Positions 7,241 to 29,354 of a stretch of DNA of 32,000 nucleotides are shown here, piece after piece; the stretch's first letter is position 1; each line of letters begins with the position of its first letter. The notes under the pieces were generated by a model. The model was given only the letters and a program-made list of their open reading frames with translations. It had not been told where the DNA came from and made no database searches. The translations under genes and the position numbers were made by a program. The stretch is from NCBI RefSeq assembly GCF_000284115.1, contig NC_017080.1, forward strand, positions 2,700,001-2,732,000, given 5' to 3'. The DNA is from Phycisphaera mikurensis NBRC 102666. Its GTDB lineage: Bacteria > Planctomycetota > Phycisphaerae > Phycisphaerales > Phycisphaeraceae.

Positions 7241-7288
7241 GGCGGGGAAGGAAGCGAGAGCAAAACCTGGGGCGAGCGGAACCTCAAA

Positions 7289-9559: not shown

Positions 9560-9582
9560 GGCGCTGGTCAGCTTTCTTCCAA

Positions 9583-9742
9583 AAGCGAAGAAGCGAAGAA
9601 GTGCGGAAGCGAAGAAGTCAGCAGGGCCTTGCGCCCGGAGACGGCGGCGGCTCCGCCACCTGATGCTTCTGCTCGTCGTCTGACTCCATCACTTCTTCAC
9701 TTCTTCGCTTCTCCGCTTCTCTGCTTCTCCGCTTCTTCGCTT
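9583..9742. repeat. Octamer-phased palindromic intercistronic element, copy A (between flhB stop and flhA start)
   Basis: Left arm 9583-9622 is 5 phased units: AAGCGAAG AAGCGAAG AAGTGCGG AAGCGAAG AAGTCAGC. Right arm 9687-9742 is 7 phased units: catcactt cttcactt cttcgctt ctccgctt ctctgctt ctccgctt cttcgctt. By my hand alignment the arms are about 33/40 complementary, with a GC-rich core of roughly 55-60 nt between them. Confidence 0.85.
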
Positions 9743-9777
9743 GCTCCACAACGTCCCTCGAACAACGACGCCTCGCC

Positions 9778-10848: not shown

Positions 10849-11127
10849 CCGTGGCCCTCCTGATCGGTTGTCGGCGAGGTCCGCCGGCGTCCTGCCCGCG
10901 GCCGCGCATCATCGGCCGCCCGGCCGCCACCGCGCCAATCCGGCGCGGTCGTTACGGAGCGGCGACGGTCGACAGGCGGCTTCGGCGAGCGGGGACCCGC
11001 TCTTCGAGGCGTCGGCGTCGCCCGCCTTCGAGATGGTGCCCGGGGCCTCCCGATGCGTGCGGGCCCGGGCGCGAAGCAACCGGACGGCGCGTCGTGATCG
11101 GCTCCGGCAAGGCGGCGGCGCTTCCGC

Positions 11128-12063
11128 TTAGAGCCCCAGCGCCGCGGCCATCGTCGAGCCCAGGTCGGCGGGGCTCTCCGCGACCGAGCAGCCGGCGGCC
11201 CGCAGCGCGTCGAGCTTGCTCTCGGCGCCGCCCTCGCCGCCGGAGATGATCGCGCCGGCGTGGCCCATGCGGCGGCCGGGGGGGGCCGTGCGGCCGGCGA
11301 TGAAGGCGGTGACGGGCTTGGTGACGCTCTTCTTGATGAAGGCGGCGGCGGTCTCCTCGTCGGTGCCGCCGATCTCGCCGATCATCACGATGCCGTCGGT
11401 CTGCTCGTCCTCCTGGAACATGCCCAGCAGGTCGACGAAGTTGAGGCCGCGGACCGGGTCGCCGCCGATGCCGACGCAGGTGGATTGGCCGAGGCCCCGG
11501 TTGGCGGTCTGCCACACGGCCTCGTAGGTGAGGGTGCCGGAACGCGAGATGATGCCGACGGCTTTGCCCGTGGGGGCCTTTTCTGCGGGCACGTGGATGT
11601 AGCCGGGCATGATCCCGATCTTGCAGCCCGCCTCCTCCGAGCCGGGCTTCGCTCCGTCGACGCCGGGCGTGATCACGCCGGGACAGTTGGGCCCGAGCAG
11701 CGTGCAGTGGGGGAATTTCGCGGCGAGCGTGGCCTTCACCCGCATCATGTCCAGCACGGGCACGTGCTCGGTGATGCAGATGGCCAGCGTGATGCCGGCG
11801 TCGGCGGCCTCCAGGATCGCGTCGGCCGCGAACGGCGGCGGGACGAAGATCATCGACGCGGTGGCTCCGGTCTCCTCGACGGCCTTGGCGACCGTGTCGA
11901 AGACGGGCAGGCCGTTCTCGTCCTCGAGGCCGCCCTTGCCCGGGGTCACGCCGCCCACCATCTGCGTGCCGTACGCCAGGCACTTGGTGGTGTGGAACTG
12001 CCCGGCGGAACCGGTGATTCCCTGGGTGATGACACGGGTGTTTCGGTCGACGAGGATTGGCAT
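11128..12063 (-). CDS. sucD: Succinyl-CoA synthetase (ADP-forming) alpha subunit
   Basis: 311 aa, ATG start. Motifs: [45 protein letters not shown], and the phosphohistidine loop [11 protein letters not shown]. No sucC lies upstream in this window. Confidence 0.9.
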
Positions 12064-12079
12064 GGGCGGACGATACCGG

Positions 12080-12233
12080 GGGCGGGGAAGCGGAGAAGCG
12101 AAGAAGCGGGGAAGCGGGGAAGCGAAGAAGTCAGACAGGCAAGCGCGCGAGACCAGGAGCGGTCGGCGCAGCCGCCGCGCTTCTGCCTGGCTTCCTCACT
12201 TCTTCGCTTCTTCGCTTCCCCGCTTCTTCCCTT
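12080..12233. repeat. Octamer-phased palindromic intercistronic element, copy B (between nuoH stop and sucD start)
   Basis: Left arm 12088-12135: AAGCGGAG AAGCGAAG AAGCGGGG AAGCGGGG AAGCGAAG AAGTCAGA, preceded by a partial unit. Right arm 12186-12233: cctggctt cctcactt cttcgctt cttcgctt ccccgctt cttccctt. The stem continues into the core (caggcaagcgcg / cgcgcttctgcctg). It shares the 15-mer AAGCGAAGAAGTCAG with copy A (12120-12134 vs 9607-9621). Confidence 0.85.
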
Positions 12234-12256
12234 GATCCGCAGAGCGGATGCCCCGC

Positions 12257-13612
12257 TCACGCCGGGCTGAACCGACTTCCCACCAGCGGCACCTTCCGGT
12301 TCACCTCCGGCCCCGCAGGCAGCAGCGGGCTGAGGAGCAGGGCTCCGGCGACCACGGCAACGTTGGCCAGCGTGAACATCCACCAAGCCGTCAGCCCGGC
12401 CCAAACCATCACGCCGACGACCAGCAGCATCACCAGCACCAGCGGGATCATGCCGCGCCAAGCCAGCCGCATCAGCTGATCGAAGCGGAAACGCGGGAGC
12501 GTCCAGCGGACCCACATCATCACGAAGAGCACCAGCGCCACCTTGGCCATGAACACGCCCATCTTCAGGCTCACGACGAGGATCCCCTCCAGCCAGCCCT
12601 CGGCGACGCTTGGAAAGGCGTGGAGGAAGGGCAGCTCCCAGCCGCCAAAGAACATCAGCACGACGAACGCCGAGCCGGTGATCATGTGGATGTATTCGCC
12701 CAGGAAGAAGAGCGCCCACTTCATCGAGGAGTACTCGGTGTGGAAGCCGCCGACGAGCTCCTGCTCGGCCTCGGCGAGGTCGAAGGGGGCCCGGTTGCAC
12801 TCGGCGAGCACGCACACGAAGAAGATGGCCGCCAGCAGCGGGTGCATCAGCACGCCCCAGACCTCGCCGAGCCCGAACCAGCCGGCGGAGATCTGGCCCT
12901 GGACCATCGCCTCGGTGTCGGCGGTGCGGTACATCAGGATCATGATCAGCACGCAGACGCCCATGGGGATCTCGTAGCTGAGCATCTGGGCCGTCGCCCG
13001 GAGGCCGCCGAGGAAGGCGAACTTGTTGTTGCTGGAGAAACCCGCGAGCACCACCCCGTACACGGCGAGCGAGCTGACGGCGAGCAGATAGATGACGCCG
13101 ATCGAGATCGGCAGCACCGCGACGCGGGCCGCGTCGACCAGGCCGGTCACCGGGTCCACCGGCGAAGGGGCGACGAGGTCGATCCCGAAGAGGTGGATGC
13201 CCGGGAAGGCCCACATCCCGCCCCAGGGGATCACCGCCCAGCCGATCATCGCGGGGATCACCGCGAGCACGGGCGCGAGCAGGAACAGCCGCAGGTCGAC
13301 AAAGGGCGGGGTGTAATCCTCCTTCACGAAGAGCTTGAGGCCGTCGGCGAGGGCCTGGCCCAGGCCGAAGGCCTTCTTCCGGGCGAGGAAGCGGAAACCG
13401 GGGATCGAGCGGACGATCCTGCCCAGCGTCGGGTAGATCTCCAGCAGGTCGGACTGGCCGAAGGAGAAGTCGGTGCGGTTGGGGCCGATCCGGTCCTGCG
13501 CCCACGCGGCGACCTTGCGCTCCAGGAGGATGAGGTAGGCCGTCGCCCCCAGGATCACCGGGAGAAGCGACAGGGCCACGACGATCGACAGGAAGGCCTG
13601 CGCGCTGAGCAT
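12257..13612 (-). CDS. nuoH: NADH-quinone oxidoreductase (complex I) subunit H
   Basis: 451 aa, ATG start. Motifs: LLERKVAAWAQDRIGPNR, GLGQALADGLKLFVKED, FSSNNKFAFLGGLRATAQMLSYEIPMG and NRAPFDLAEAEQELVGGFHTEYS. It carries about 35 extra residues after GPNR and is longer than typical NuoH. No other nuo genes are adjacent. Confidence 0.9.
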   Translation of the reverse strand: MLSAQAFLSIVVALSLLPVILGATAYLILLERKVAAWAQDRIGPNRTDFSFGQSDLLEIYPTLGRIVRSIPGFRFLARKKAFGLGQALADGLKLFVKEDYTPPFVDLRLFLLAPVLAVIPAMIGWAVIPWGGMWAFPGIHLFGIDLVAPSPVDPVTGLVDAARVAVLPISIGVIYLLAVSSLAVYGVVLAGFSSNNKFAFLGGLRATAQMLSYEIPMGVCVLIMILMYRTADTEAMVQGQISAGWFGLGEVWGVLMHPLLAAIFFVCVLAECNRAPFDLAEAEQELVGGFHTEYSSMKWALFFLGEYIHMITGSAFVVLMFFGGWELPFLHAFPSVAEGWLEGILVVSLKMGVFMAKVALVLFVMMWVRWTLPRFRFDQLMRLAWRGMIPLVLVMLLVVGVMVWAGLTAWWMFTLANVAVVAGALLLSPLLPAGPEVNRKVPLVGSRFSPA

Positions 13613-13737
13613 CGGCGGACTCTACCGGCACCGCCCGCGGCCCGGGCTCCGGGTCCTGGAGACCGCGGGGGACGGCCGCCGGCCGGCCCCGCCGCCCCCG
13701 GCGGAGCCCGAAACGGCCGATAGGCTCGGCAACCGCC

Positions 13738-15477
13738 TTGGAAGCCGCTCCTCCCAGCCCGAAACGCGAAGAATCCGCCGCTTCGAAGCGGAAACGGCGG
13801 GAAGAGCGGCGGGCGGTGCGGCTCCACGAGCCCGCCGAGCGGTCGCTCAAGGAGACGCTGGAGTCGGTCGTCGTCGCCTTCATCCTCGCGTTCACGTTCC
13901 GCGTGTACGTGACGGAGGCCTACATCATCCCCACCGGGTCGATGGCGCCGACGCTGCTCGGGAGCCACGTGGAGGCCGATTGCCCCGCGTGCGGCTTCCG
14001 CCTGGTGGCGGACGCGGCGCCCCTGCTCGAGCACGCCGTCGACGAAGCCCGCTGCCCGATGTGCTTCCTGGAGGTGCCGCTGGCCGAAGCGCCCGGCCTG
14101 CCGCCGGCGGTCCGCGCCGGCGACCGCATCCTCGTCCAGAAGCATCTCGGCCGCTTCGAGTCGCCGCGGCGGTACGACGTGCTCGTCTTCAAGAACCCGC
14201 AAAACCCCTTCGGCGGCGGGCAGAACTTCATCAAACGCCTGACCGGGTTGCCGGGCGAGCGGCTGATGCTGCTCGACGGCAACGTCTACGTCGCCGACGA
14301 GCCGGAGGAGGCGGGCGTCCCCGACGAGCGGCTGCGCTGGCGGATCGCCCGCAAGACCGACGAGAAAGCCAATCCACGGGCCGAGGCGATCCAGCGCGCG
14401 GTGTTCCAGCCCGTGTGGCACAGCCGCCACTGGCCCGGGGACGGCGGCACGAGCGGCGGCGTCACCCGCTGGGCGTGCCCCTGGGTCCCGCGGAGCGGCC
14501 GGTGGGAACGCGCGGCGGGCCGCTTCCGGCCGCTCGCGGACCCGCCGGCGGCGAGCACGCCCGCGTTCACGCTCGGCTTCGACTTCACCCCCGTCGCCGG
14601 CCGGCCCGGCTACCTGCGGCCCGACGCGATCTACCCGTACAACCAGCTCGGCTACGGCCCCGGCGACCTCGACGTCTTCGAGGACTTCCGCGTCGCGATG
14701 ACGCTGGAGCCCGCCGAAGCCGCGGACCGCGGCGGCTTTGGCCCGTTCGAAGCGACGGTCCGCGGGACGGCCCGGCTGGCGGCGGGCGTGGCGGACGTGC
14801 GCGTCCGCTTCGCGGAAGAGCACGTCTGGCTCGAGAGCCGGCCGGCGGGAACCGACGCGGCGTGGACCCGCCTCGCGGCCGCCGGCGCGGGCGTGGGGCT
14901 CCCGCCGCTGGCCAAGCGGCCTCGCCTGGAGTTCTGGTCCGTCGATCAGGAGTTCTCCGCTTGGATCGACGGCGTCCGCGTGCTGCGGTACCGCGTCGAC
15001 GTCGGTTTCGAGGCGCTGCTCACCCGGCCGGGCCCGCCCCGGCCCGCGGAGCAGCGGCTGCGGATCGGGCTGGCCGGACCCGGAGCGACCGCCGCGGCCC
15101 TGGTCGACCTCGACCTCGACCGCGACCTCTTCCACGAGAGCGGGGCCCTGGGCGGCTTCCGCGGCGGCGTGAGCCGCGGGCTCAACGGCCTGGTGCGCCG
15201 GGACCGCGTGGAGCCGGTGCGGCTGGCGGCCGACCGCTTCTTCTTGGTGGGGGACAACAGCCCGCAGAGCGACGACAGCCGCCGCTGGTCCACCGTCGAC
15301 GCCTGGATCCGGGACCGCTACTTCCCCGGCGTGCCGGCGCGGGACGCCGCGGGCCGGGTGCCCGCGGGGCTGCTGATCGGCCGCGCCTTCGCGGTCTACT
15401 ACCCCGCCGCCAAGCCGCTCCGGCCCGGCGGCGCGGCCGTGGTGCCCGACCTCGCGGCCATGCGGTGGATCGACTGA
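13738..15477 (+). CDS. lepB: Signal peptidase I (S26 family), unusually long, with inserted CPxC...CPxC zinc-ribbon-like motif
   Basis: Box B IIPTGSMAPTLLG (Ser nucleophile), box C GDRILVQK, box D FIKRLTGLPGERL (Lys general base), and box E FLVGDNSPQSDDSRRWS. The start is uncertain: TTG at 13738 per the track, or an in-frame GTG at 13816 as an alternative. Confidence 0.85.
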   Translation: MEAAPPSPKREESAASKRKRREERRAVRLHEPAERSLKETLESVVVAFILAFTFRVYVTEAYIIPTGSMAPTLLGSHVEADCPACGFRLVADAAPLLEHAVDEARCPMCFLEVPLAEAPGLPPAVRAGDRILVQKHLGRFESPRRYDVLVFKNPQNPFGGGQNFIKRLTGLPGERLMLLDGNVYVADEPEEAGVPDERLRWRIARKTDEKANPRAEAIQRAVFQPVWHSRHWPGDGGTSGGVTRWACPWVPRSGRWERAAGRFRPLADPPAASTPAFTLGFDFTPVAGRPGYLRPDAIYPYNQLGYGPGDLDVFEDFRVAMTLEPAEAADRGGFGPFEATVRGTARLAAGVADVRVRFAEEHVWLESRPAGTDAAWTRLAAAGAGVGLPPLAKRPRLEFWSVDQEFSAWIDGVRVLRYRVDVGFEALLTRPGPPRPAEQRLRIGLAGPGATAAALVDLDLDRDLFHESGALGGFRGGVSRGLNGLVRRDRVEPVRLAADRFFLVGDNSPQSDDSRRWSTVDAWIRDRYFPGVPARDAAGRVPAGLLIGRAFAVYYPAAKPLRPGGAAVVPDLAAMRWID

Positions 15478-15825
15478 CCGGGCACCGTGGAGGAGCCGGC
15501 AGCGGGTTCTTCCACACCGCCGGGCCGGATTCGCCACCCGGGAGACTCACCCGATCCTCACGCTGCCCCCGCGGGCAGACGAGGGGACCACGAGGCGGCG
15601 TCTCCACCTCAAGCTAAGGATATACATGAGTTTACGCTCGTTTTCGCCTCGATCGGGCGCGTGGAACGTTCGAACAGCGTTCAGAAGCGGAGGGTAAGCT
15701 GGGGACTCTGGCAGCGGAGCCCTCCGGCCACGTCCCCACGTTCTGCACACTTCCGTGCAACGAGGCTCGCCGCGTCACCGCAGCAGGCGGCCGCGGCGGC
15801 GGGGCCGTCCCGGTAGGTTGCCCGC

Positions 15826-16437
15826 ATGCCCGCCAGCTCCTCCGCGTCCGCCAGCGTCCGCCGCCACGTCCTCGCCGCCCTCGTCACCAACGAGCCCGGC
15901 GTCCTGGCGCAGGTGGCCGGCATGTTCGCCGCCCGCGGCTTCAACATCGACTCGCTGGTGGTTGGCCGCACCGACAACCCCGAGCTGTCGCGGATGACGA
16001 TCGTGGTCCCCGGGGACGACGCGGTGCTCGAGCAGGTCCGCAAGCAGCTACAGAAGCTCGTTCCCGTGGTGAAGGTGGTGGACTACCACGAGGTTCCCTA
16101 CGTGGAGCGGGACCTGGTGCTGGTGACGGTGGCCACCGGCAAGCCGCGGGAGGACGGGCAGGAGGACGGCCGCGGGGCGACGGAGTACCGCGAGGAGATC
16201 GCCTCGCTGGCCACGCTCTTCCGCGCGAAGGTCGTGGACGTCGCGGCCGACCGGCTCATGATCGAGCTCGCCGGCGAGGAGAGCAAGCTGGAGAACTTCA
16301 TCGAGCTGCTCAAACCCTACGGCATCCTCGAGCTGGCCCGCACCGGCGTCATCGCCATGCCGCGGGGCATGGCGCCCAAGGCACGCGTCGCCGAGGAGAA
16401 GAAGACGGTGGACGCCGCGGACCTGCCGCCGGGCTGA
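15826..16437 (+). CDS. ilvN: Acetolactate synthase (AHAS) small regulatory subunit
   Basis: 203 aa, ATG start. ACT domain HVLAALVTNEPGVLAQVAGMFAARGFNIDSLVVGRTDNPELSRMTIVV, followed by the ALS_ss_C-type region (LMIELAGEESKLENFIELLKPYGILELARTGVIAMPRG). No large subunit is adjacent. Confidence 0.85.
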   Translation: MPASSSASASVRRHVLAALVTNEPGVLAQVAGMFAARGFNIDSLVVGRTDNPELSRMTIVVPGDDAVLEQVRKQLQKLVPVVKVVDYHEVPYVERDLVLVTVATGKPREDGQEDGRGATEYREEIASLATLFRAKVVDVAADRLMIELAGEESKLENFIELLKPYGILELARTGVIAMPRGMAPKARVAEEKKTVDAADLPPG

Positions 16438-16464
16438 GCCGCGGGCGAGCCCAACGGCGGCGTG

Positions 16465-16905
16465 TCAATCCGCCTCGAGCGCCAGGATCTTCTCCAGCCG
16501 CTTCTCGTGCCGCCCCCCGGCGAAGGGCGTCTCGAGGAAGGTGGTGACGATGCGCTCGAGCAAGCGCGGGCCCAGCAGGTCGGCGGCGAGGCAGAGGACG
16601 TTGACGTCCAGGTAGCCCCGCGCGGTCTCGGCGGCGATCTCGTCCTGCGCCTGAGCGGCCCGGATCCCGCGGAGCTTGTTCGCGGCGAGGCAGCTGCCCA
16701 TGCCGGTGCCGCAGAGCAGCACGCCCCGCTCCGCGTCCCCGCTGAGCACGCTGCGGCAGACCGCGATCGCCATGTCCGGGTAGTCGCAGACGTCGCCCCC
16801 GCAATCCGCGATGACGGCCACCGCGATGCCCCGCTGCTCGAAGAGCGGCAGCAGCTGCTGCAGCGCGTCGTGCCCGCGGTGGTCGGCGCCGATCGACACC
16901 CTCAC
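16465..16905 (-). CDS. rpiB: Ribose-5-phosphate isomerase B (RpiB/LacA/LacB family)
   Basis: Only the last 146 codons of the 384-aa track ORF look real: VRVSIGADHRGHDALQQLL...GVLLCGTGMGSCLAANKLRGIRAA...NVLCLAADLLG...TPFAGGRHEKRLEKI. The GTG start (complement of 16903-16905) overlaps the TGA stop of the upstream gene as GTGA, which suggests translational coupling. Confidence 0.85.
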   Translation of the reverse strand: MRVSIGADHRGHDALQQLLPLFEQRGIAVAVIADCGGDVCDYPDMAIAVCRSVLSGDAERGVLLCGTGMGSCLAANKLRGIRAAQAQDEIAAETARGYLDVNVLCLAADLLGPRLLERIVTTFLETPFAGGRHEKRLEKILALEAD

Positions 16906-18014
16906 GGCGCCAGCTCCGCGAGGCGCCGGCCGACGGCGGCGCGGATCTGGTCCGCGGCGCGGCGGTAGTCCTCGGCGTCCCCGCCGATCGGGTCGCTCAC
17001 GTCTGCGCCGGGATCGAGCCGGCTGGCCTTCGACGCCGCGTCGGGGAAGCGCGACACGAGCAGGTCGAGGTGGTCGGCCGTCAGCGTGTAGATCACGTCG
17101 GCATCGACCACCGCCTGCGCCGTCAGCGCGTGGCTGCGGTGATCGGCCAGCCCGCCGCCGGCGCCGGCCGCCTCCGCGACGGCCTCGGGGCTGGCGGCGT
17201 ACCCGTCGACGGCGCTGACGCCCGCGGAGGACACGGTCACGCCCCCGCCGCCATCGGCGACCGCCTGCCGGGCGAACGCTTCGGCCATGGGCGAGCGGCA
17301 GGTGTTGCCGGTGCAGACGAACAGGATGTGGAGTCGGTTGAGGCGTTCCACGATGCGCGGAGCATAAACCCCGGCCCGGAGCACGCTCGCCCGCAGGCGG
17401 CCGCGGCTCCCGTCCGCCCGCTTCGGCCGGAACAGCCGCACCGCCGTGGACCCGCGGCCGAAGCGGGCGGGGCCGCCGAGCACCACCAGGTCGGCCCCGA
17501 CCGGTGGCCGCTCCCGCGGATCGACCACCTGCCGGCCGGCCGCGTCCACGGCAGGCAGCGCCACCACCGGCCCGCCCGCCGCGGCGACCGCCCGCCGCGT
17601 GACCCGCGGTTCGGGGCACCGCACCGCCACGCGGCCGCCGCGGGCGAACACGCCCCGGGCGGCCTCATCGGGCGCCCGCGACGCCAGCGACGCCGCGTCC
17701 GCGTCGAGCGTGACCGCGTACGCCCCGGGCATCGCCCGCCGCAGGAAGCGGCCGACCGCCGGGTCGGCGGGCGCAAGCGACGCCGCCGCCGCCGCGTCGG
17801 GCACCTGCAGGGCGAGCGCCTGCCCGTCGACCAGCCCACGCTCCCGCCGCACCCGGGCCACGGCGTCGGGCCGATCGGCCCGGAGAAAGAGCCCGTAGAC
17901 GGTTTCGGTCGGCAGGACCACCGCCTCCCCGCGATCGAGCGCAGCGGCCGCGACCGCCGGAGCGTCCGAGCGGTCGGCTTCGATCTCGGCGGTTGGGGTC
18001 AGGGCGGCTTCCAC
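16902..18014 (-). CDS. Fusion protein: N-terminal YrdC/Sua5 (TsaC-like, threonylcarbamoyl-AMP synthase family) domain plus C-terminal low-molecular-weight phosphatase (YwlE-like)
   Basis: 370 aa, GTG start. The N-terminal half has the YrdC hallmark VVLPTETVYGLFLRA. The C-terminal half begins ILFVCTGNTCRSPMAEAFARQ (a C-X5-R(S) P-loop, essentially the same motif as in B. subtilis YwlE) and carries the DP-loop VSDPIGG. Confidence 0.75.
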   Translation of the reverse strand: MEAALTPTAEIEADRSDAPAVAAAALDRGEAVVLPTETVYGLFLRADRPDAVARVRRERGLVDGQALALQVPDAAAAASLAPADPAVGRFLRRAMPGAYAVTLDADAASLASRAPDEAARGVFARGGRVAVRCPEPRVTRRAVAAAGGPVVALPAVDAAGRQVVDPRERPPVGADLVVLGGPARFGRGSTAVRLFRPKRADGSRGRLRASVLRAGVYAPRIVERLNRLHILFVCTGNTCRSPMAEAFARQAVADGGGGVTVSSAGVSAVDGYAASPEAVAEAAGAGGGLADHRSHALTAQAVVDADVIYTLTADHLDLLVSRFPDAASKASRLDPGADVSDPIGGDAEDYRRAADQIRAAVGRRLAELAP

Positions 18015-18135
18015 GGAGGGCAGGCTAGGTCGCGCCCGGAAGCGCCCGCCGCCACGGCGGTTGCGGGGCGCTGGCCGACGCGCGGCCGGCTCCCGGAGCG
18101 GCAGGCCCGGGCCCCGGCCCCGTCGTCGGGCCGGG

Positions 18136-19248
18136 TCAATCCCGCAGCACGACGACGTCCGCCGGATCGACCCAGCCCGTCAGCGGTGCCGCCTCCGCGT
18201 CGACGACGAACCGGGGGTTCATCTCCAACGCGGTGAGCGTGAGCCCCCCGCCGCCCCCGTCGTCGCCGCCGGCCGTGGCCCGCACCGTGTGCTGCGCGAC
18301 CTCGCCGAGGTAGACGCCGCCGGCTCGCTTCAGGCGGAGGCGGTTCTCGCCGGGCAGACGCTTCTCCGCGTCCGAGCCCGGCTCGGCCAGGACGACGGCT
18401 TCGGGACGGATCGAGCACGTGACCGAGCCGGATGCCGGCAGCCGCTCGGGGAAGACCGCCGAGGCCAGCCGCCCCGCCGCCGTCTGCAGCAGCACGCGGC
18501 CGCCGTCGCGTCCGACCACCTCCGCCGCCACGAGGTTCGTCTCCCCGAGGAAGCCCGCGACGAAGCGGTTCTTCGGCCGCTCGTAGAGCTCACGCGGCGG
18601 GCCGACCTGCTCCAGCTTGCCGCCGTTGAGCACGGCGACGCGGTCGGCCATCGACAGCGCCTCCTTCTGGTCGTGGGTCACGTACACGCCCGTGGTGCCG
18701 GCGGCCTTGGTGATGTCGCGGATGCCCTGCCGCATCTCCAGCCGCAGCTTCGCGTCGAGGTTCGAAAGCGGCTCGTCGAGCAGCAGGACGCGCGGCTCGA
18801 TCACCAGCGCCCGGGCCAGCGCCACCCGCTGCTGCTGCCCGCCGGAGAGCTGGTTCGTTTTGCGGTCCGCCTGGTGCCCCAGCTGCACACGCTCCAGCGC
18901 CGCGTCCACGCGCTTCCGCGTCTCCGCCTTCGAGACCTTGCGGACCTCCAGCCCGAAGGCCACGTTCTGCCGCACCGTCATGTGCGGCCAGAGGGCGTAG
19001 CCCTGGAAGACCATCCCGGTGTCGCGCTTCTGCGGCGCGACGTGGGTGACGTCGTCGCCGCCGAAGAGGATGCGGCCGGCGGTGGGCTCCTGGAAGCCGG
19101 CGATCATCCGCAGCAGCGTCGTCTTCCCGCAGCCCGACGGCCCGAGCAGGAAGAAGAGGTCGCCCGCGGGGATGTCGATCGAGACATCGTCCACCGCGAC
19201 CGTCTCGCCGAACTGCTTGCGGAGGGTGTCCAGTCGGATCGGCGTCAT
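18136..19248 (-). CDS. ABC transporter ATP-binding protein (PotA/FbpC/MalK-type importer ATPase with C-terminal TOBE-like region)
   Basis: 370 aa, ATG start. Walker A LLGPSGCGKTTLLRMIAG, Q-loop MVFQGYALWPHMTV, signature LSGGQQQRVALARAL, Walker B LLLDEPLSNLD. No permease or binding-protein gene is adjacent. Confidence 0.85.
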   Translation of the reverse strand: MTPIRLDTLRKQFGETVAVDDVSIDIPAGDLFFLLGPSGCGKTTLLRMIAGFQEPTAGRILFGGDDVTHVAPQKRDTGMVFQGYALWPHMTVRQNVAFGLEVRKVSKAETRKRVDAALERVQLGHQADRKTNQLSGGQQQRVALARALVIEPRVLLLDEPLSNLDAKLRLEMRQGIRDITKAAGTTGVYVTHDQKEALSMADRVAVLNGGKLEQVGPPRELYERPKNRFVAGFLGETNLVAAEVVGRDGGRVLLQTAAGRLASAVFPERLPASGSVTCSIRPEAVVLAEPGSDAEKRLPGENRLRLKRAGGVYLGEVAQHTVRATAGGDDGGGGGLTLTALEMNPRFVVDAEAAPLTGWVDPADVVVLRD

Positions 19249-19406
19249 GACGAGAACCTTAAAGGACCACGCGCGAGCGCAGCGCTTGTGGGCGACGGGC
19301 CGCGCGCACCGCCGCCCGAGCCGCAGCCACCGGCTCGGCTCCGGCCGCCTCCGGGTGGCTCCCCCGCGTCGTGATCGGGGGGCCGAGGCGGGAGCGGCGC
19401 GGGCGG

Positions 19407-20636
19407 TCAGTGGATGAACTTCTTGCTCTTCTTCCCGGTCAGGTAGCTCTCCACCACCGTCGAGGCGAGGTCCTCGCTGGTGCAGTAAAAGGCCGTCCCG
19501 CGCGTGAGCCTGGTCAGCTTCTCGATGAAGCCGACCCAGTCCATGCCCCAGTAGTCCTCCATCAACGCGAAGCTCGCGATGCGGATGCCGCGCTGCTGGC
19601 AGCGGAGCGCCTCCCGCAGCGTCAGCTCCGAAGACTCGTCGCTCGGCGGGTAGACGAGGTAGAGCATGTCCTCGCGGGTCGCCGGATGGGTGGTGACGTG
19701 CGCCGTCGGCTGGCCGTCGGTCACGATGAAGATCTGCTTGTTGGCCGCCCCGCTCCGCGAGAGGATCTGCCGGGCCTGCCGAAGCCCCAGCTGCAGGTTC
19801 GTGAAGTGCAGCGGGATCTTCTCCTGGTTCGCGTACGCCTGCTCCAGCGGGATCCGCAGGCGGACCTGGCTGTCGCGGATGCTCACCGGCTTGGGCATGA
19901 CCAGCGGCAGGTCCCGCTCGTGCAGCGTCTCCGCCAGCGAGGAGAAGCCGACGAACTGGAGGGTGTCCAGCGGGAAGCGGCCGCGGATCAGCTCGCTCAT
20001 GCCCAGCGCGACCCGCTTCGCCTGCAGGAAGCGGCCGTAGCGCATCATCGAGCCCGAGAGGTCGATCAGCATGACCGTGGCGCAGTCCGCCGAGCCCTCG
20101 GTGTTGTGGAGCTGGAAGTCCTCGGGCGTGATGCCGATCGGCAGGCGGAGCCCGCGGGGAACCTCCACCCCCGCCTCCCGGGCCTCCTCCACCGCACGGT
20201 GCACCTGCCGCCGGGCGGCGTTCTGCAGCGAGCCGGGCAGGTCCAGCTCGCCGATCGGATCGCCGAACCGGTACGGCCGGGTCCCGTCGCTGCGCTCGCT
20301 GGTGCGGCCCGGCTCGCGGGTGCTGTGGCCTTCCTTGGCGCCCTGCTTCATCTCGGCGAACACCTCGAGCAGCGCCCGGTGCTGGAGCCCCCGGAGCAGC
20401 CGCGGCGACATCTTCAGGCGCCGGTTGCCGTCTTCATCGGTGCTCTCCTCCAGCAGGCCGGCGTCGATGAGCTGCTGGATGAACGCCTGCTCCTCCTCGT
20501 CCTCGAGGTTCGCCATCGCGTCCATCGCCTGCTCGCCGTACTGCAGGATGAAGTTCATGAGGTTCGGCGGGGCGAACAGCTCGTCGGGGGAGAGGAAGCC
20601 CTGATCGCCAGAAAACTCGGAGTAATCGAACCTCAT
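19407..20636 (-). CDS. von Willebrand factor A domain protein (CoxE-like VWA)
   Basis: MIDAS motif VMLIDLSGSMM, later IFIVTDGQPTAH. The N-terminus MRFDYSEFSGDQ resembles the M-x-Y-S-x-W-D-G-x-Q starts of CoxE-type VWA proteins. I prefer the ATG at the complement of 20634-20636 over the track's GTG at 20666. Confidence 0.7.
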   Translation of the reverse strand: MRFDYSEFSGDQGFLSPDELFAPPNLMNFILQYGEQAMDAMANLEDEEEQAFIQQLIDAGLLEESTDEDGNRRLKMSPRLLRGLQHRALLEVFAEMKQGAKEGHSTREPGRTSERSDGTRPYRFGDPIGELDLPGSLQNAARRQVHRAVEEAREAGVEVPRGLRLPIGITPEDFQLHNTEGSADCATVMLIDLSGSMMRYGRFLQAKRVALGMSELIRGRFPLDTLQFVGFSSLAETLHERDLPLVMPKPVSIRDSQVRLRIPLEQAYANQEKIPLHFTNLQLGLRQARQILSRSGAANKQIFIVTDGQPTAHVTTHPATREDMLYLVYPPSDESSELTLREALRCQQRGIRIASFALMEDYWGMDWVGFIEKLTRLTRGTAFYCTSEDLASTVVESYLTGKKSKKFIH

Positions 20637-20871
20637 GAGCGACGTTAGCGCCGCGGTGAGGCGCACCGGGAGGGGCTCCGCACCCAGCGAAGGGCCTGCG
20701 ACGCGACGCCGCCGCGTGCGGCGGCGGGCCCGCCCGTGCCGCGGACCGCGGGCCCATCGGCGTGATCGCGCGGACGGTCCGCGGCGAACCCGGGGAGGCT
20801 CGGCGGGGTTGGTCGATCGGCTTCAGGCGTTTAGGCTCGGTCAGATTCCCCACTCGTACGCCGGCTCCTCC

Positions 20872-21753
20872 ATGCACCACCGCCCGCTCGCCCGCCGGAC
20901 GGCCCTCGGATTCACGCTCGTGGAGCTGCTGGTCGTCATCGCCGTGATCGCCCTGCTCGTCGGGATCCTCCTGCCGGTGCTCGGCGCCGCCCGGACGGCG
21001 GCGAAGACGGCGGCCTGCATGGCCAACATGCGGTCGCTCGGGCAGGCGACCGTCGCCTACACGCAGGACCACGCGCTGACGTACCCGCAGCCGTTCCAGG
21101 AGGGCCAGCTCGGCGCCGCCGGCGGTCTTTCCGCGGACCGGGTCAGGGGCCGGGCCCTCTGGTACAACGCGCTGGACCGCTACCTCGGGCAGGTCGTGAA
21201 GGATTATTCCTCGGCCGATCCGGCCGCCCGGAACCACGACGCGTACAAGCAGGACCCGGTCTGGTTCGAGCTGCCGGCGGCGGTGAAGTCCGGAGCGACC
21301 ACGGTGCTCCTGCAGCCCGAGGAGGTCCGCACGATCAAGATGAACCAGTACTTCGGCGAGATCGGTGGCTCCGCCACCGCGGCGGGGGCGGTGAACTTCG
21401 TGCGGATGACGCGGGTGCCCGAGCCCGCGCGGACCGTGCTCTACGGCGACGGGCGGGCCCACGACACCCCCTCCACCACCTCCGGGAACGTCGACACCGG
21501 CGGATCCGGCCGCTTCGACTTCAACCCCGCGACGATCGGCCTCCGCCACGGCGGAGGCGCCAACCTGGCCTTCGCCGACGGCGGCGCGGCGTACCAGGAG
21601 AACCCGGTCCGCGTCACCGCCACGGGCTACCGCGGCTGGTTCGACCCTTACGCCAGCGGCGTCACCCCCGGGCAGTACCCCGACGCGATCTTCCGGTTCG
21701 AGCCCGATCGCACCGGCCAGGACCGCATCCGCGCCCGCGGCGGCAACCGCTGA
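20872..21753 (+). CDS. Prepilin-type N-terminal cleavage/methylation domain protein, DUF1559 (H-X9-DG) family
   Basis: Start taken at the in-frame ATG 20872 (MHHRPLARRTALG|FTLVELLVVIAVIALLVGILLP), a class III signal with the G|FTLVE cleavage site. The C-terminal RHGGGANLAFADGG fits H-X9-DG exactly. The upstream 79 codons of the track ORF are Arg-rich and probably not coding. Confidence 0.85.
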   Translation: MHHRPLARRTALGFTLVELLVVIAVIALLVGILLPVLGAARTAAKTAACMANMRSLGQATVAYTQDHALTYPQPFQEGQLGAAGGLSADRVRGRALWYNALDRYLGQVVKDYSSADPAARNHDAYKQDPVWFELPAAVKSGATTVLLQPEEVRTIKMNQYFGEIGGSATAAGAVNFVRMTRVPEPARTVLYGDGRAHDTPSTTSGNVDTGGSGRFDFNPATIGLRHGGGANLAFADGGAAYQENPVRVTATGYRGWFDPYASGVTPGQYPDAIFRFEPDRTGQDRIRARGGNR

Positions 21754-21762
21754 TCCGGGGGC

Positions 21763-22983
21763 TCAACGCCCCGCCGCTTCGACCGCGTCGCAGAACGCGG
21801 CGCACATCCGCTCGCGGGTGAAGCGCTCCGCCTCGCGAGCGGCGGCGGCCGACTTCTCCGCGAGCTCGGCGCGGCCCGCGGGCGTCAGGAGCCGGCGGAA
21901 CAGCGCCTCGGCCGCGTCCGCGTCGTCGTGGGCCACCGTCCAGCCCGCCCCGGCATCTGCGATCTCGGCGACGTGGCTGTCGGCGGGGGCCATCGCCAGC
22001 AACGGGCGGTGGACCTTCAGCACGCCGTACACCTTGCAGGGGTGGACGATCCCGCTCATGGCGCCGCCCATCGCGACGAGGTGGACGTCGGCGGCGGACA
22101 GCGAGTAGCGGATCTTCTCCAGCGGCTGGTAGGGCAGCGTCACGACGCTGGCCAGCCCCCGTTCCGCGGCCCGGTCGCGGATCTTCTGCCAGCCTCCGCC
22201 GGCCCCGATGAAGACGAAGCGGAGGCCGTCGGCGTCCCGCACCCGCTCGGCCGCCTCGAGCACCGCGTCGATGGGATGGGCATCGGAGATGTTGCCCGAG
22301 TACATGACGACCGTCTTCCCGTCGAGCCCGTGCTCCGCCCGGAAGGGGTTCTCCGCGTGCGGCACCGGGTCGAGGTGGGCGTCCATCGGCCACGGCGGCT
22401 GCACGTGCAGGCGCTCCTGCAGCGCCGCGTCGGGCACCTTCGCGGCGAGCCGCTCCGCCATGAAACGGTCGAGCGTGCAGACGCGGGCGGCGTGCTTCAG
22501 CGTGGCGCGGATCATCGACTCGAAGAGCCACGCCGGGGTGGAGTCCGCGGCGCACTTGCCCATCGCGACCATCTGATCGGGGTTGATGTCCATCGCCCAG
22601 AACACGTACGGCGTGCGGCGGCACGCACGCAGCGCGAGCGCGGCCAGCGGGGCCATCGGCGGCGACGTCGACACCAGCGTCACGTCGAAGCGCCGGCCGC
22701 CGAGCACCCGCAGCGCCGCCTGCGCCGTGAACGAGCAGCCGCCGAGCAGCCGCACCGCCATCGAGCCCTTGCCGAAGGAAGAGAAGCCCAGCCGGCGCAC
22801 CCGCACCCCGTCCAGCGTCTCCCGCTTGGGGTAGGTCTGCGAAGAGTCTTCGTAGGACTTCGACGCCGCCACCGCGACGACGTCGTGCCCCCGCCTCGCC
22901 AGCTCCACCGCGGCGTCGTGCATGTACTGCCCGACGGCGGGCGCGTCGGGGACGTACGTCTGGGAGAGGATCAAGATTCGCAT
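21763..22983 (-). CDS. Glycosyltransferase family 4 (WcaI/WbuB-like)
   Basis: 406 aa, ATG start. MRILILSQTYVPDAPAVGQYMHDAAVELARRGHDVVAV is a typical GT4 N-terminus. The C-terminal GT-B half reads VMYSGNISDAHPIDAVLEAA...FVFIGAGGG...ADVHLVAM. Confidence 0.75.
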   Translation of the reverse strand: MRILILSQTYVPDAPAVGQYMHDAAVELARRGHDVVAVAASKSYEDSSQTYPKRETLDGVRVRRLGFSSFGKGSMAVRLLGGCSFTAQAALRVLGGRRFDVTLVSTSPPMAPLAALALRACRRTPYVFWAMDINPDQMVAMGKCAADSTPAWLFESMIRATLKHAARVCTLDRFMAERLAAKVPDAALQERLHVQPPWPMDAHLDPVPHAENPFRAEHGLDGKTVVMYSGNISDAHPIDAVLEAAERVRDADGLRFVFIGAGGGWQKIRDRAAERGLASVVTLPYQPLEKIRYSLSAADVHLVAMGGAMSGIVHPCKVYGVLKVHRPLLAMAPADSHVAEIADAGAGWTVAHDDADAAEALFRRLLTPAGRAELAEKSAAAAREAERFTRERMCAAFCDAVEAAGR

Positions 22984-23025
22984 GAGAACGTCGCACCGGC
23001 TCGATCGACCGTGGCCGCGTCAGGT

Positions 23026-23390
23026 GGTGAAGGGGGAGCGAGGACAAGCCAGCAAGCAACCCGATCCGCAAGAGCCGCGGGCACCCGCCGCGGAGGCATC
23101 CCCCTCACCTCCCCGCTGCTTCACTTCCTCGCTCCCCCACTTCTTCGCTTCCTCGCATCTTCGCTTCTTCAATCCTTCGCTTCTTCGCTTCCTCACTTCC
23201 TCGCTTCTTCACTTCTTCGCTTCTTCGCTTCTTCGCTTCCCCGCTTCTTCGCTTCCCCGCTTCCCCGCTTCCTCACTTCTTCGCTTCCTCACTTCCTCGC
23301 TTCTTCACTTCTTCGCTTCTTCGCTTCCCCGCTTCCCCGCTTCCTCACTTCTTCGCTTCCTCACTTCTTCGCTTCCCCGCTTCCCCACTC
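23026..23390. repeat. Octamer-phased palindromic element, copy C: short purine arm, about 81-nt core, and a hyper-expanded 34-unit pyrimidine arm
   Basis: 23119-23390 parses into 34 consecutive 8-nt units (consensus CYYCRCTT; dominant variant CTTCGCTT) without a single indel. The block starting at 23191 recurs at 23287, a 96-nt (12-unit) offset. The short arm GGGGGAGCGAGGA (23032-23044) is perfectly complementary to 23126-23138. Confidence 0.95.
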
Positions 23391-24415
23391 CCCCTCCGCT
23401 CCCCCGCCAGCCGCGCCAGCACCACCACCTCCCGCTTCACATCCGCCAGCGGCTTCGCCGGCATGCCGCCCCAGCGTTCCCCGGCGGGCACGTCTTTCAT
23501 CACCTTCGAGCCCGCGGCGATCTTGGCGTGATCGCCGACGCGGAGGTGATTGGCCACGCCCGCCTGGCCGCCGATGGAAACGTAGTCGCCGGTGGTGACG
23601 CTGCCGGCGAGGCCGACGTCGGCGACCAGCAGGTTGTGCTTGCCGATCTTGCAGCCGTGACCGATGACCACGTTGTTGCTGGCCTTGGTGCCCTCGCCGA
23701 TGACGGTGTCGCTGAGCTGCCCCCGGTCGACGCTGCAGTTGGCACCCAGCTCGACGTCGTCGCCGATGACGACGCTGCCGATGTGCGGGATCGCGTGGTG
23801 GCGCAGCGGGGCCCGGTGGCCCTCGTACTCCTCCTTGGGATCCCTGGCCGTCGCGTAGCCGAATCCGTCCTGCCCGATGGAGGTGCCCGCGTGCAGGACC
23901 ACGCGCTTGCCGATGCGGCAGCGGGCGTAGACGTGCACGCCGGGGTAGAGCACGCAGTCGTCGCCGATCACGCTCTCCTTGCCGACGTAGACGCCGGGGT
24001 AGAGGATCACCCGGGCACCGATCTTCGCCCGCGGCGCCACGTAGGCGTGCGGCCGGATCGTGCACAGCGGCCCGACCTCGGCGGTGTCGTGCAGGTAGGC
24101 CTCCTCGTCGATGCCCACGCCGGGCTGCGGCCGGAACCCGTGCATCTTCATCACCGCGTTGCGGAACGCGAAGGCGACGTCGTCCACCACGATCGCGCAG
24201 CGGTCCGGGTGGCGATCGGCGAGCGCAGCGTCGAGGATGACGCAGCCGGCTCGGGTCGTTGCGAGCCGATCGTGGTACCGCGGCGCCGCGACGAAGGAGA
24301 GCTGATCCGGCTCCGCCTCGTCGAGCGCGGCGCACCCGGTGAGCACGGTCTCGCCCGACCCGCGGACCTCACCGGCGAGGTGGTCCGCCAGCTCCGCAAC
24401 GGTGGTTTCAGCCAT
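23345..24415 (-). CDS. lpxD: UDP-3-O-(3-hydroxyacyl)glucosamine N-acyltransferase
   Basis: 356 aa, ATG start. It has an N-terminal LpxD domain (LSFVAAPRYHDRLATTRAGCVIL) and a long left-handed beta-helix of hexapeptide repeats containing SIGQDGFGY and VVIGDDVELGANCSVDRG. The last 16 or so codons ([16 protein letters not shown]) and the stop lie inside repeat copy C. Confidence 0.9.
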   Translation of the reverse strand: MAETTVAELADHLAGEVRGSGETVLTGCAALDEAEPDQLSFVAAPRYHDRLATTRAGCVILDAALADRHPDRCAIVVDDVAFAFRNAVMKMHGFRPQPGVGIDEEAYLHDTAEVGPLCTIRPHAYVAPRAKIGARVILYPGVYVGKESVIGDDCVLYPGVHVYARCRIGKRVVLHAGTSIGQDGFGYATARDPKEEYEGHRAPLRHHAIPHIGSVVIGDDVELGANCSVDRGQLSDTVIGEGTKASNNVVIGHGCKIGKHNLLVADVGLAGSVTTGDYVSIGGQAGVANHLRVGDHAKIAAGSKVMKDVPAGERWGGMPAKPLADVKREVVVLARLAGERRGSGEAGKRRSEEAKK

Positions 24416-24424
24416 CGGCGGAGC

Positions 24425-25477
24425 CTACCGGGCGGGCTGCGGATCGGCATCGGGGCAGGCCAGCCAGCGGTCCAGCGTTCGGGCCTGGCCCAGCGAGTCG
24501 GCGTGGCCCATCGCGCGGCCGGCGGCCTCGGTGCGGCCGGCGCGGATGGCGTCGCCGGCGGCGTCGATCTCGTGGGAGAGCAGCGCCCCGGCGTAGTCGA
24601 CGGTCACCGGCTCGGAATCCTTGCCGCGGCGGATCGCAAGGTGCGGGCCCTCCCGGCCGGGCTCGAAGTGCCAGGGCCAGCGGCCGCAGACGACCAGCGA
24701 GCCCTCGCCGCCGTGCACGCGGATCCACTGCGCGTGGGCGCGGAGCGTGCAGTAGACGCTCGCGGTCACGCCGTCGGCGAAGAGCAGCTCGGCGCCGGCC
24801 TCGACGTCCACGCCCGTGCCGCCGCGGCGGAGCCAGCCGCGGAGGCCCCCGGGGTCGCGGAAGCGTTCGCCCGCCGCGGCGCCCGCGATCGCTCGCGCCA
24901 TCGAGACCGCGTAGGTGCCCACGTCGAGGATCACCCCGCCGCCGAGGGCGGGCTCGAGCAGCCGGTGGCCGGGGTCGAGCGGGAGCATCGCCCCCCCGAA
25001 GGCGGTCTCGATGCGGAACACGCGGCCGACCGCCCCCGCCTCCACGCGGGCGAAGAGCTCATTGAACACCGGGTGCGGCCGGTCCTTGAACGCCTCCATG
25101 AAGAAGACGCCCGCTCCGCGGCAGGCCTCGATCATCGCGGCCGCCTCCTCCGCGGTCATCCCCGCGGGCTTCTCGACCATCACGTGCTTGCCCGCCGCGG
25201 CCGCCGCGAGCACGCTCTGGAGGTGGAAGGGGTGCGGGGTGGCGACGTAGACGCCTTCGACCGCGTCGGAGGCGATGAGGTCTTCGTAGGAGCCGAAGGA
25301 TGCCGCTGCGGGCGCGTGCTCGGCGGCGAAGGCCTCCGCTCTCTCTCGCGAGCGGCTGCCGACGGCGGCGACGACGCCGGTGCGGGAGTCGGCGGCGCCG
25401 GCGGCGAACTTCCGCGCGATGCCGCCGCAGCCGAGGATGCCCCAGCGGACGGGCTCGTCGATCGTGTCGTTGCTCAT
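24425..25477 (-). CDS. Gfo/Idh/MocA family NAD(P)-dependent oxidoreductase
   Basis: Start taken at the ATG (complement of 25475-25477): MSNDTIDEPVRWGILGCGGIARKFA, a Rossmann GxGxxG. The family motif HVMVEKP is present, followed by a C-terminal alpha/beta domain. The upstream 62 codons of the track ORF look non-coding. Its stop is 9 nt from the lpxD start. Confidence 0.8.
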   Translation of the reverse strand: MSNDTIDEPVRWGILGCGGIARKFAAGAADSRTGVVAAVGSRSRERAEAFAAEHAPAAASFGSYEDLIASDAVEGVYVATPHPFHLQSVLAAAAAGKHVMVEKPAGMTAEEAAAMIEACRGAGVFFMEAFKDRPHPVFNELFARVEAGAVGRVFRIETAFGGAMLPLDPGHRLLEPALGGGVILDVGTYAVSMARAIAGAAAGERFRDPGGLRGWLRRGGTGVDVEAGAELLFADGVTASVYCTLRAHAQWIRVHGGEGSLVVCGRWPWHFEPGREGPHLAIRRGKDSEPVTVDYAGALLSHEIDAAGDAIRAGRTEAAGRAMGHADSLGQARTLDRWLACPDADPQPAR

Positions 25478-29131: not shown

Positions 29132-29284
29132 GCGCTCGGCCGCGAGGACGATCTCTCGCAACCGGCCGCGCGCAGGTCCCGCGGACGGCAGACGATTTCG
29201 TCGTCGAGCGTGGGCGGTCCGCGGCCGGAGGCGGTCTCTCCCCCCGGGGCGGTGCCGTCGGCCGGCGCCGTGCGGCTGCGGCGC

Positions 29285-29314
29285 GGGCCGGGCCGGGCCG
29301 GGCCGGGCCGGGCC
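29285..29314. repeat. Pentanucleotide microsatellite (GGGCC)5 plus a degenerate unit GGGCG
   Basis: Direct reading: gggcc x5 at 29285-29309, then gggcg at 29310-14. That gives six G3 runs separated by 2-nt loops. It is intergenic, 154 nt after the purH stop and 41 nt before the next GTG start. Confidence 0.9.
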
Positions 29315-29354
29315 GGGCGGATCTTGCCGGAGCCGGAAGCCGTACGCTGGCTCC

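Follow-up and report, generated by a model that had tools for sequence, protein, structure and literature searches.

An expanded octamer array between lpxD and a glycosyltransferase gene of Phycisphaera mikurensis is probably derived from a dispersed palindromic intergenic repeat element

A 32,000-nucleotide (nt) stretch of the genome of Phycisphaera mikurensis NBRC 102666 (NC_017080.1, positions 2,700,001 to 2,732,000; the window, 73% G+C) contains a tandem array of octamers in the spacer between lpxD and a gene for a GT4-family glycosyltransferase. The lpxD gene, encoding UDP-3-O-acylglucosamine N-acyltransferase, was placed at 23345 to 24415 on the minus strand from protein matches and its open reading frame (ORF), and the glycosyltransferase gene lies downstream of it on the same strand at 21763 to 22983. 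The array and its associated sequences (23026 to 23408) are referred to as copy C. Octamer sites were present at three positions in the window, all three between co-directional minus-strand genes. For each of the LpxD, FlhB and prepilin-like proteins of the window, an NCBI record of P. mikurensis was 100% identical.

The larger part of copy C is an array of 34 octamer units at 23119 to 23390, with a consensus of CTTCGCTT on the plus strand and of AAGCGAAG on the transcribed minus strand. In the sense of lpxD and the glycosyltransferase gene, this array is the element's purine (5') arm. A first-pass annotation, made from the sequence alone, had parsed 34 octamers without an indel from 23119 onward, and every unit that it listed matched the sequence. 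Tandem Repeats Finder reported a repeat at 23124 to 23384 with a period of 8, 32.6 copies, 0% indels and a score of 270, as well as an alternative period-72 reading. A degenerate two-unit pattern had 29 matches in the window against 0.79 expected, all at the three octamer sites. The constant head-to-tail period is that of a tandem repeat array of the variable-number tandem repeat (VNTR) or minisatellite-like type.

When each distinct unit was given a letter, the order of units was abcdedfddghadddidiigdghaddiigdgdij. Units 9 to 14 (23183 to 23230) recurred exactly, over 48 nt, as units 21 to 26 (23279 to 23326) at an offset of 96 nt; this duplication had been described previously as one unit shorter. 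A second exact 48-nt duplication, at an offset of 72 nt, was detected between units 17 to 22 (23247 to 23294) and units 26 to 31 (23319 to 23366). Taken together, the two duplications amount to the copying of a 12-unit block with the loss of 3 units. When the unit order was shuffled 5,000 times, only 36 of the shuffles yielded two blocks of five or more units. Singleton variant units were located at both edges of the array and the center was homogenized, as expected for an array homogenized from its center. At the lpxD end, the TGA stop codon of the gene (23345 to 23347) forms part of a AAGTGAGG variant unit (unit 29), and the C-terminal ∼15 residues of LpxD are encoded by the array. A coding repeat was ruled out, as only these last ∼15 lpxD codons enter the array and no frame of the array past lpxD had the coding-type codon-position G+C of the window. 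A CRISPR array was also ruled out, as the units abut with no spacers between them.

The opposing pyrimidine (3') arm was detected only as a remnant at 23032 to 23044, with the start codon of the glycosyltransferase gene 48 nt past it. As the first-pass annotation had indicated, this remnant pairs perfectly over 13 bp with the loop-proximal array units at 23126 to 23138; it was the sole inverted partner. The intervening loop (23045 to 23118) holds a G+C-rich mini-palindrome, CCGCGG-GCACCCG-CCGCGG, at 23075 to 23093. Thus, a 34-unit arm faces a 13-bp remnant stem, and the description of the hairpin as grossly unbalanced was accurate. Folding of the transcript strand of copy C yielded −129 kcal/mol compared to −136 kcal/mol for shuffled sequences (z = +1.57), which bore out the claim that most of the purine tract of the transcript has no partner. 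Searches of Rfam 15 detected no match in the window at the gathering score and nothing at copy C at an E value of ≤1, and a riboswitch or small RNA of a known family was rejected.

The soundness of the array was assessed by comparison with other assemblies. The window was 100% identical over 20,238 nt, with the array included, to contig JACHEL010000017.1 of assembly GCA_014207395.1, and LpxD, including the tail that the array encodes, was recorded both on the 3.80-Mb (3,803,225-nt) chromosome and on the JACHEL contig. A Logan read-assembly contig of SRR12223476 (L078) stopped at 23209. The first 30-mer of the duplicated block (23180 to 23209) finishes at this same position, and the stop is explained by the behavior of a k-mer assembler at a true internal duplication. 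In a contig of a second run, SRR29904083, the glycosyltransferase gene was found at the same offset from the contig end, a correspondence that concerns gene position only. Because of the JACHEL identity, the position of the Logan break and this offset, an assembly artefact was considered unlikely.

Copy C was found to be one of four copies of an element in ∼53 kb of P. mikurensis sequence, all of which lie between co-directional genes (flhB-flhA, nuoH-sucD, lpxD-glycosyltransferase and fabF-tatA). The element consists of an 8-nt-periodic purine arm, a G+C-rich loop of 50 to 90 nt and an 8-nt-periodic pyrimidine arm, followed at times by a small 3' hairpin module. Copy A (9581 to 9749, flhB-flhA) and copy B (12078 to 12250, nuoH-sucD) have arms of 4 to 7 octamers and loops of ∼60 to 75 nt with G+C-rich mini-stems. 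Their predicted RNA folds of −93 kcal/mol (z = −5.1) and −117 kcal/mol (z = −7.1), respectively, were far better than those of shuffled sequences, whereas that of copy C was not. Copy D, in the fabF-tatA spacer 2.4 kb to the left of the window, combines a purine arm of 13 units with a degenerate pyrimidine arm of ∼4 units; its purine arm is composed mostly of AAGCGGAG, a dominant variant that differs from that of copy C. The first-pass annotation had named the lack of any other expanded copy in the genome as one part of what would speak against its view of the array, and copy D is such an expanded copy. Two of the four elements (C and D) are therefore unbalanced, and in both it is the transcript-5' purine arm that is expanded. 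Overall, these comparisons indicated that copies A and B represent the normal balanced form and that copy C is the extreme, most degenerate and most expanded member of a family and not a stand-alone oddity or a distinct device. No match to copy B was detected in a plasmid collection, from which the P. mikurensis plasmid is absent, and its matches in Rfam were limited to far-sub-threshold ones to eukaryotic microRNA-precursor hairpins. No P. mikurensis paralogue was present among the best 120 matches to the prepilin-like protein.

Orthologous spacers were examined in relatives, represented by metagenome-assembled genomes (MAGs) whose LpxD proteins are 77 to 85% identical to that of P. mikurensis (a range given for the relatives other than L087). 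The lpxD-glycosyltransferase arrangement was kept, with spacers of 76 to 176 nt compared to 361 nt in P. mikurensis, where the spacer carries the 34-unit purine array and the 13-bp remnant stem. Balanced hairpins were present in L082 (152 nt, GGGA-type arms), in L083 and L084 (108 nt, GAGA-type arms, AAGAGAGA) and in L085 (176 nt, GAGA units mixed with AAGCGAAG units), and the 166-nt spacer of L087 has a hairpin with arms of GAGTTACA and TGTAACTC octamers. The 76-nt spacer of L086 has no such hairpin but is too diverged to serve as an alignable empty site. The flhB-flhA spacer contained a hairpin in L110, L111 and L112, and the arms of the relatives' balanced hairpins in these two spacers measured 36 to 48 nt. 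Two more paired hairpins were detected in L112, in the fliN-fliO and fliP-fliQ spacers, together with a pyrimidine-only tract in the flhA-flhF spacer, giving three paired elements and one pyrimidine-only tract within 21 kb. The lpxD genes of L082 and L087 are 92% identical at the DNA level, yet their lpxD-glycosyltransferase spacers could not be aligned, which points to rapid turnover of the spacer.

The tract at the flhA-flhF junction is composed of pyrimidines on the sense strand and lacks a purine partner. It measures 25 nt in P. mikurensis (window 7241 to 7265) and 51 to 91 nt in the relatives (L110, 13552 to 13608; L111, 13554 to 13644; L112, 13573 to 13623), with a difference of 34 nt (57 versus 91) between two genomes that are ∼90% identical. 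In L111, flhA was called as two ORFs of 412 and 387 amino acids (11245 to 13646); the gene is intact in P. mikurensis and L112, and the split is probably an assembly frameshift error.

Each genome had its own flavor of arm, namely AAGCGAAG, AAGAGAGA, GGGAAAGA or GAGTTACA. The sharing of 9-mers was 0.10 to 0.36 among most paralogues of one genome and 0.00 to 0.05 between orthologous elements of P. mikurensis and other genomes; by this measure, arm flavor tracks the genome and not the locus. Whatever the unit, the autocorrelation maximum was at a lag of 8 or 16 in all 23 arms examined. Genome-specific arms suggest concerted evolution or repeated renewal of the arms, and the constant 8-nt period would be preserved by unequal exchange in a tandem array while the units turn over. 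The polarity was also uniform, with the purine arm first in every Phycisphaera element.

In contrast to the arms, other parts of the element were shared between sites. A 20-nt loop core, GCGGCGGCTGCGCCGACCGC, was identical at three non-orthologous spacers of two species (window 12159 to 12178, in copy B; L112 2234 to 2253 and 4552 to 4571), in elements that differ in arm flavor. The 3' module has the form CTTGAT[stem-NNN-stem]ATG, and its stem covaries between copies (ATTGGC/GCCAAT, ATCGGC/GCCGAT and ATCCGC/GCGGAT). It follows the pyrimidine arm in L082, L083, L085 and copy B, where it is CTTGATCCGCAGAGCGGATG at 12231 to 12250 of the plus strand and hence antisense to the flanking genes; a related form, CTTGCCTGGCGCAGCCATG, follows the pyrimidine arm in a second element of L087 (element 2) and is likewise antisense to the genes. 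The non-orthologous L082 lpxD-glycosyltransferase and L087 nuoG-mreD spacers had in common the 3' module as well as an arm segment of 22 nt, in both orientations relative to the genes. At its outer edge copy C has a degenerate G-rich segment (23391 to 23408; GGCGGGGGAGCGGAGGGG on the minus strand), and a similar GGGGGCGGGG-type leader is present in copies B and D and in L087 element 2. The presence of shared modules at non-orthologous sites and in both orientations suggests that the element has been dispersed by transposition or conversion. A metagenome scan with the 3' module CTTGATYGGCGCAGCCRATG returned 22 matches, all in unrelated sequence without purine/pyrimidine arms and mostly on lower-G+C contigs, and several of them resembled coding sequence; the scan added no member to the family.

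In L082, L083 and L085, the ATG of the module is the called start of the glycosyltransferase (MPSPLRIL… and MPLRIL…), which therefore lies within the 3' hairpin module (L082, 11171 to 11190; L083, 11148 to 11167; L085, 6912 to 6931). This start adds 2 to 5 residues (MPSPL-, MPPAP- or MPL-) before a conserved RIL(V/I)LSQ, and there is no later ATG in L082 or L085. A further motif, the GCGNAGC-type mini-hairpin GGCGCAGCC, was seen repeatedly, both in loops and within the 3' module.

We consider it probable (∼0.65) that copy C derives, by expansion of one arm with decay of the opposite arm, from a mosaic palindromic repeat that is dispersed in intergenic spacers of Phycisphaera, and that balanced members of the family are co-transcribed RNA hairpins. 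The AAGCGAAG unit would have taken over the arms in P. mikurensis, and the copy C arm beside lpxD would have grown to 34 units through slipped-strand mispairing and unequal exchange, leaving nested 12- and 9-unit duplications and overrunning the end of lpxD. The arm beside the glycosyltransferase gene would have decayed to ∼2.5 units and, once one arm had outgrown the other, further expansion would have been unconstrained. Copy C has probably lost its hairpin, and the expansion is probably a neutral by-product. The first-pass annotation had attributed the higher-order duplication to recent slippage or unequal recombination in an actively evolving array. As an account of the history of the array, this was supported by the higher-order blocks with their 3-unit deletion, the degenerate edges and the homogenized center; growth of the array was also supported by the short orthologous spacers and by the 13-unit arm of another dominant variant in copy D. 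As a claim of ongoing polymorphism it was not upheld, the JACHEL assembly of this one strain being identical.

Co-transcription of the balanced elements is almost certain from their location inside flagellar gene clusters and from the way in which they fill spacers from stop to start codon. Such elements would fold into 40- to 55-bp RNA hairpins, which may act on the polycistronic mRNA by processing, segmental stability or attenuation. A near-perfect RNA stem of 40 to 55 bp is a generic substrate of RNase III and a barrier to 3' exonucleases, as for the REP, Correia and ERIC repeats. The purine-first polarity could reflect ancestry from a bidirectional terminator with an A-tract, hairpin and U-tract, if transitions under G+C pressure made mixed purine/pyrimidine tracts.

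Several observations weigh against this interpretation. The sense and antisense strands of the elements folded about equally, and G-U (versus A-C) counts had no strand bias, so nothing favors RNA over DNA as the selected level; the role in RNA is one that we can only infer. Neither a transposase nor an empty site was identified for the element, no Y1_Tnp domain or RAYT gene was detected among the genes of the ∼53 kb of P. mikurensis examined, and the putative mobility of the element rests on the modules shared at non-orthologous sites. The density of ∼1 copy per 13 kb is an extrapolation from 53 kb only. No difference in array length was observed between the window and the JACHEL assembly, and no canonical terminator (stem plus T-run) was present in any element. 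A scan for canonical promoters detected nothing in the elements.

The family was compared with known repeat systems. Like the REP, BIME and REPIN sequences of Proteobacteria, the elements are imperfect palindromes scattered over transcribed spacers and the ends of genes, are mosaics of arms and linker modules, have a species-specific consensus at conserved positions and occur in either orientation. Their GCGNAGC-type G+C-rich mini-hairpins resemble HUH endonuclease recognition sites (PMC3333891, PMC3733652). The elements differ in having arms of 35 to 55 nt made of tandem octamers, strict segregation of purines and pyrimidines and loops of 50 to 90 nt, and in that one arm can reach 34 units. 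REPs, for which superfamilies have been documented, are palindromes of 20 to 40 nt that carry a conserved tetranucleotide, GTAG or CGTC, at one end (PMC3733652). By inspection, the stems of the elements neither start nor end in this way. A likeness was also seen to the Correia/NEMIS repeats of Neisseria, the ERIC/IRU repeats of enterobacteria and the BOX repeats of pneumococcus, which are non-autonomous, measure 100 to 200 nt and have long inverted arms inside operons. The RNA hairpins of these repeats are substrates of RNase III or RNase E that alter the stability of the flanking mRNA, and BOX has a tandemly iterated module with variable numbers of boxB copies. There is no sequence relationship, however, and in Phycisphaera the arm sequence is wholly replaced between close relatives while the structure is kept.

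Two features of miniature inverted-repeat transposable elements (MITEs) were present, as copies A and B and the relatives' elements measure 125 to 175 nt, below the 500-bp limit for a MITE, with near-perfect inverted arms, and internal sequence is shared at non-homologous sites. Prokaryotic satellites, which are intergenic arrays of short units scattered through a genome and include an octamer-dimer family in Mesorhizobium ciceri, imply transposition (PMC6749651). The elements resemble the satellites of Subirana and Messeguer (2019) in being dispersed intergenic arrays that grow by slippage or unequal exchange, but that work does not present its satellites as inverted arrays paired into hairpins or as conserved in position between species (PMC6749651). 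No description of the element family was found in the literature: no paper of the searched library contained its 16-mers, and no mention of Phycisphaera was met in the papers found on repeats of Planctomycetes, part of which were judged by title and abstract. The family thus appears to be undescribed, although its kind, a REP/BIME- or MITE-like palindrome with VNTR-type expansion, is known.

The main value of these findings lies less in copy C by itself than in the features of the family (8-periodic arms, concerted flavors, conserved positions and uniform polarity). The repeat elements of Planctomycetota are essentially uncharacterized, and this family illustrates, in compact natural form, how a structure can persist through replacement of its sequence, one orthologous spacer having four arm flavors. 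It is also an example of concerted evolution of dispersed short palindromes and of a tandem array escaping from a hairpin after the balance of the arms was lost. Copies C and D are ready-made VNTR markers for Phycisphaera, at which short-read assemblies break.

When species-level genomes were scanned for three units in a row, 76 stretches were detected in many phyla. None came from P. mikurensis even though copy D fits the pattern, and the source genome is masked or absent there. Several of the 76 stretches are probably coding or simple arrays; a spanning-open-frame test for coding was uninformative, as the units are without stops in most frames. An inverted partner within 300 nt was present in 7 of the 76, from Bacteroidetes, Gemmatimonadales, Planctomycetia, Geobacterales and Caldilineaceae MAGs. 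In these paired (CTTCGCTT)n arrays (L002, L009, L011, L042, L044, L058 and L060), the purine arm lay 5' of the pyrimidine arm in seven of seven cases and the opposite polarity was observed in none.

One of the seven, L044 (4917 to 5100; Planctomycetia MAG MFD05747.bin.2.36, CAWEKV010000002.1), is a complete octamer element that lies in frame and without stops inside an enolase ORF. It comprises a 13-unit purine array, a short loop and a pyrimidine arm, and the protein reads …HYWMREGE-[∼60 amino acids …PLLRSSASSLPRFGPSLLRSP]-LTSDQMIDQFAALADDFPVLSIEDGL…. The same MAG contains two further such elements (L011 and L058). In the Phycisphaeraceae MAG binchicken_co284_12, arrays of (AAGCGAAG)4-7 that are pure and lack an inverted arm were found (L001, 892 to 967; L074, 4333 to 4470), each followed within 20 to 55 nt by a GGTTTG…CAAACC hairpin; these may represent another element that uses this octamer.

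The uniform polarity bears on an alternative in which the family consists of bidirectional transcription terminators or attenuators suited to a 73% G+C genome, copy C being a terminator with an overgrown upstream tract. As in bidirectional intrinsic terminators, a purine (A/G-rich) tract, a central G+C-rich stem-loop and a pyrimidine (U/C-rich) tract follow one another on both strands, and the elements start at or shortly past stop codons. Every loop has a G+C-rich stem, few sequences of these genomes are as T-rich as the pyrimidine arms, and the purine-first order holds in every Phycisphaera element and in the paired arrays of five other genomes. Nevertheless, the U-rich arm does not adjoin the central stem, a stem plus T-run is found in 0 elements, and the arms are ten times longer than those of such terminators and lie inside probable operons. 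Eight terminator-like sites were detected in 9000 to 25000, a number near the shuffle expectation, and none was in an element. Furthermore, two paired elements and the pyrimidine-only tract of L112 occur inside its fliN-flhF flagellar cluster, in which complete termination would do harm, and copy C retains just a 13-bp outer stem. A terminator function is therefore unlikely, but if the polarity does reflect one, it would help to explain how transcripts end or are attenuated in very G+C-rich bacteria without canonical T-run terminators.

A broader proposal is that octamer-periodic, purine-first palindromes constitute an unrecognized class of mobile or self-renewing elements across Phycisphaerae, Planctomycetia, Gemmatimonadota, Chloroflexota and others. 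Their arms would be rebuilt in 8-nt steps and homogenized genome wide while loop modules persist, and they would have a role in high-G+C genomes, for instance as bidirectional terminators or attenuators or as HUH-mobilized analogues of REPINs. We regard this proposal as speculative and rather unlikely in its full extent.

It is improbable that the unpaired 272-nt purine tract of the lpxD-glycosyltransferase transcript is itself functional, whether as a platform or sponge for ribosomes or RNA-binding proteins or, through the C-rich, G-poor antisense (CUUCGCUU)n, as a Rho loading site that suppresses antisense transcription. The tract is unstructured and rich in GGAG, GAGG and GGA motifs, with ∼15 units that have GG-A junctions or GAGG; copy D is dominated by AAGCGGAG, and the long arm is on the same transcriptional side in both expanded copies. 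However, two cases are too few for a preference of side, arrays of the related MAG are pure AAGCGAAG without GGA or GGAG, and the relatives manage with spacers of 76 to 176 nt at the same locus. We know of no protein that binds the purine tract.

Action at the level of DNA, by extrusion of a cruciform or by a non-B structure of the purine-pyrimidine type (H-DNA or slipped DNA), is no less improbable; the possibility of non-B DNA had been raised in the first-pass annotation. The element could in this way absorb supercoils or bind gyrase or nucleoid proteins, a role that has been proposed for BIMEs. The arms are near perfect as DNA and show no bias toward the RNA strand, the consensus array of AAGCGAAG is mirror symmetric, and the strand asymmetry is extreme (GC skew of −0.20 and AT skew of −0.33 over 23001 to 24000). 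The one C in each purine unit would break any triplex, however; the GGGAAAGA and GAGTTACA flavors are not mirror repeats, and loops of 50 to 90 nt disfavor cruciform extrusion.

Simple-sequence repeats phase-vary the lipooligosaccharide glycosyltransferases of Haemophilus and Neisseria, and a contingency locus could be envisaged in which unit number switches or tunes the downstream envelope glycosyltransferase or the C terminus of LpxD. The 8-nt unit is not divisible by 3, lpxD ends at a stop codon within the array and the neighboring genes act on the cell envelope. In H. influenzae, phase variation is reported to be controlled by intergenic repeats coupled to RNase III processing (PMC12721329), which would favor such a role. 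This explanation is very doubtful, as the same elements flank housekeeping genes (fabF-tatA, nuoH-sucD and flhB-flhA), variant units interrupt the array and lower the slippage rate, and no length variation separates the window from the JACHEL assembly. In addition, the TGA-bearing variants place stops in all frames, so that a change in copy number would alter a short tail only.

Least credible of all is an artefact or collapse of the assembly, for although short-read unitig assemblies break within the array and repeats of this type readily mis-assemble, the JACHEL sequence and the array-encoded LpxD tail are identical, the Logan break falls exactly where the 48-nt duplication predicts and the variant units let most 100- to 150-nt reads be placed uniquely.

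Two other repeats were noted in the vicinity. A perfect (CGGGC)7 tract is present in a spacer at 29284 to 29318 of the window, 37 nt upstream of a gene for a LON substrate-binding domain protein starting at 29355. Approximately 4.2 kb to the left of the window start (L079, ∼17860 to 18095), five direct copies of a ∼38-nt repeat, ACGGGAAGATAAACGGTGGCTGTCACCTTTTCCGCTCC, separated by short variable linkers, were found upstream of a small ORF; this repeat family is unrelated to the octamer element.

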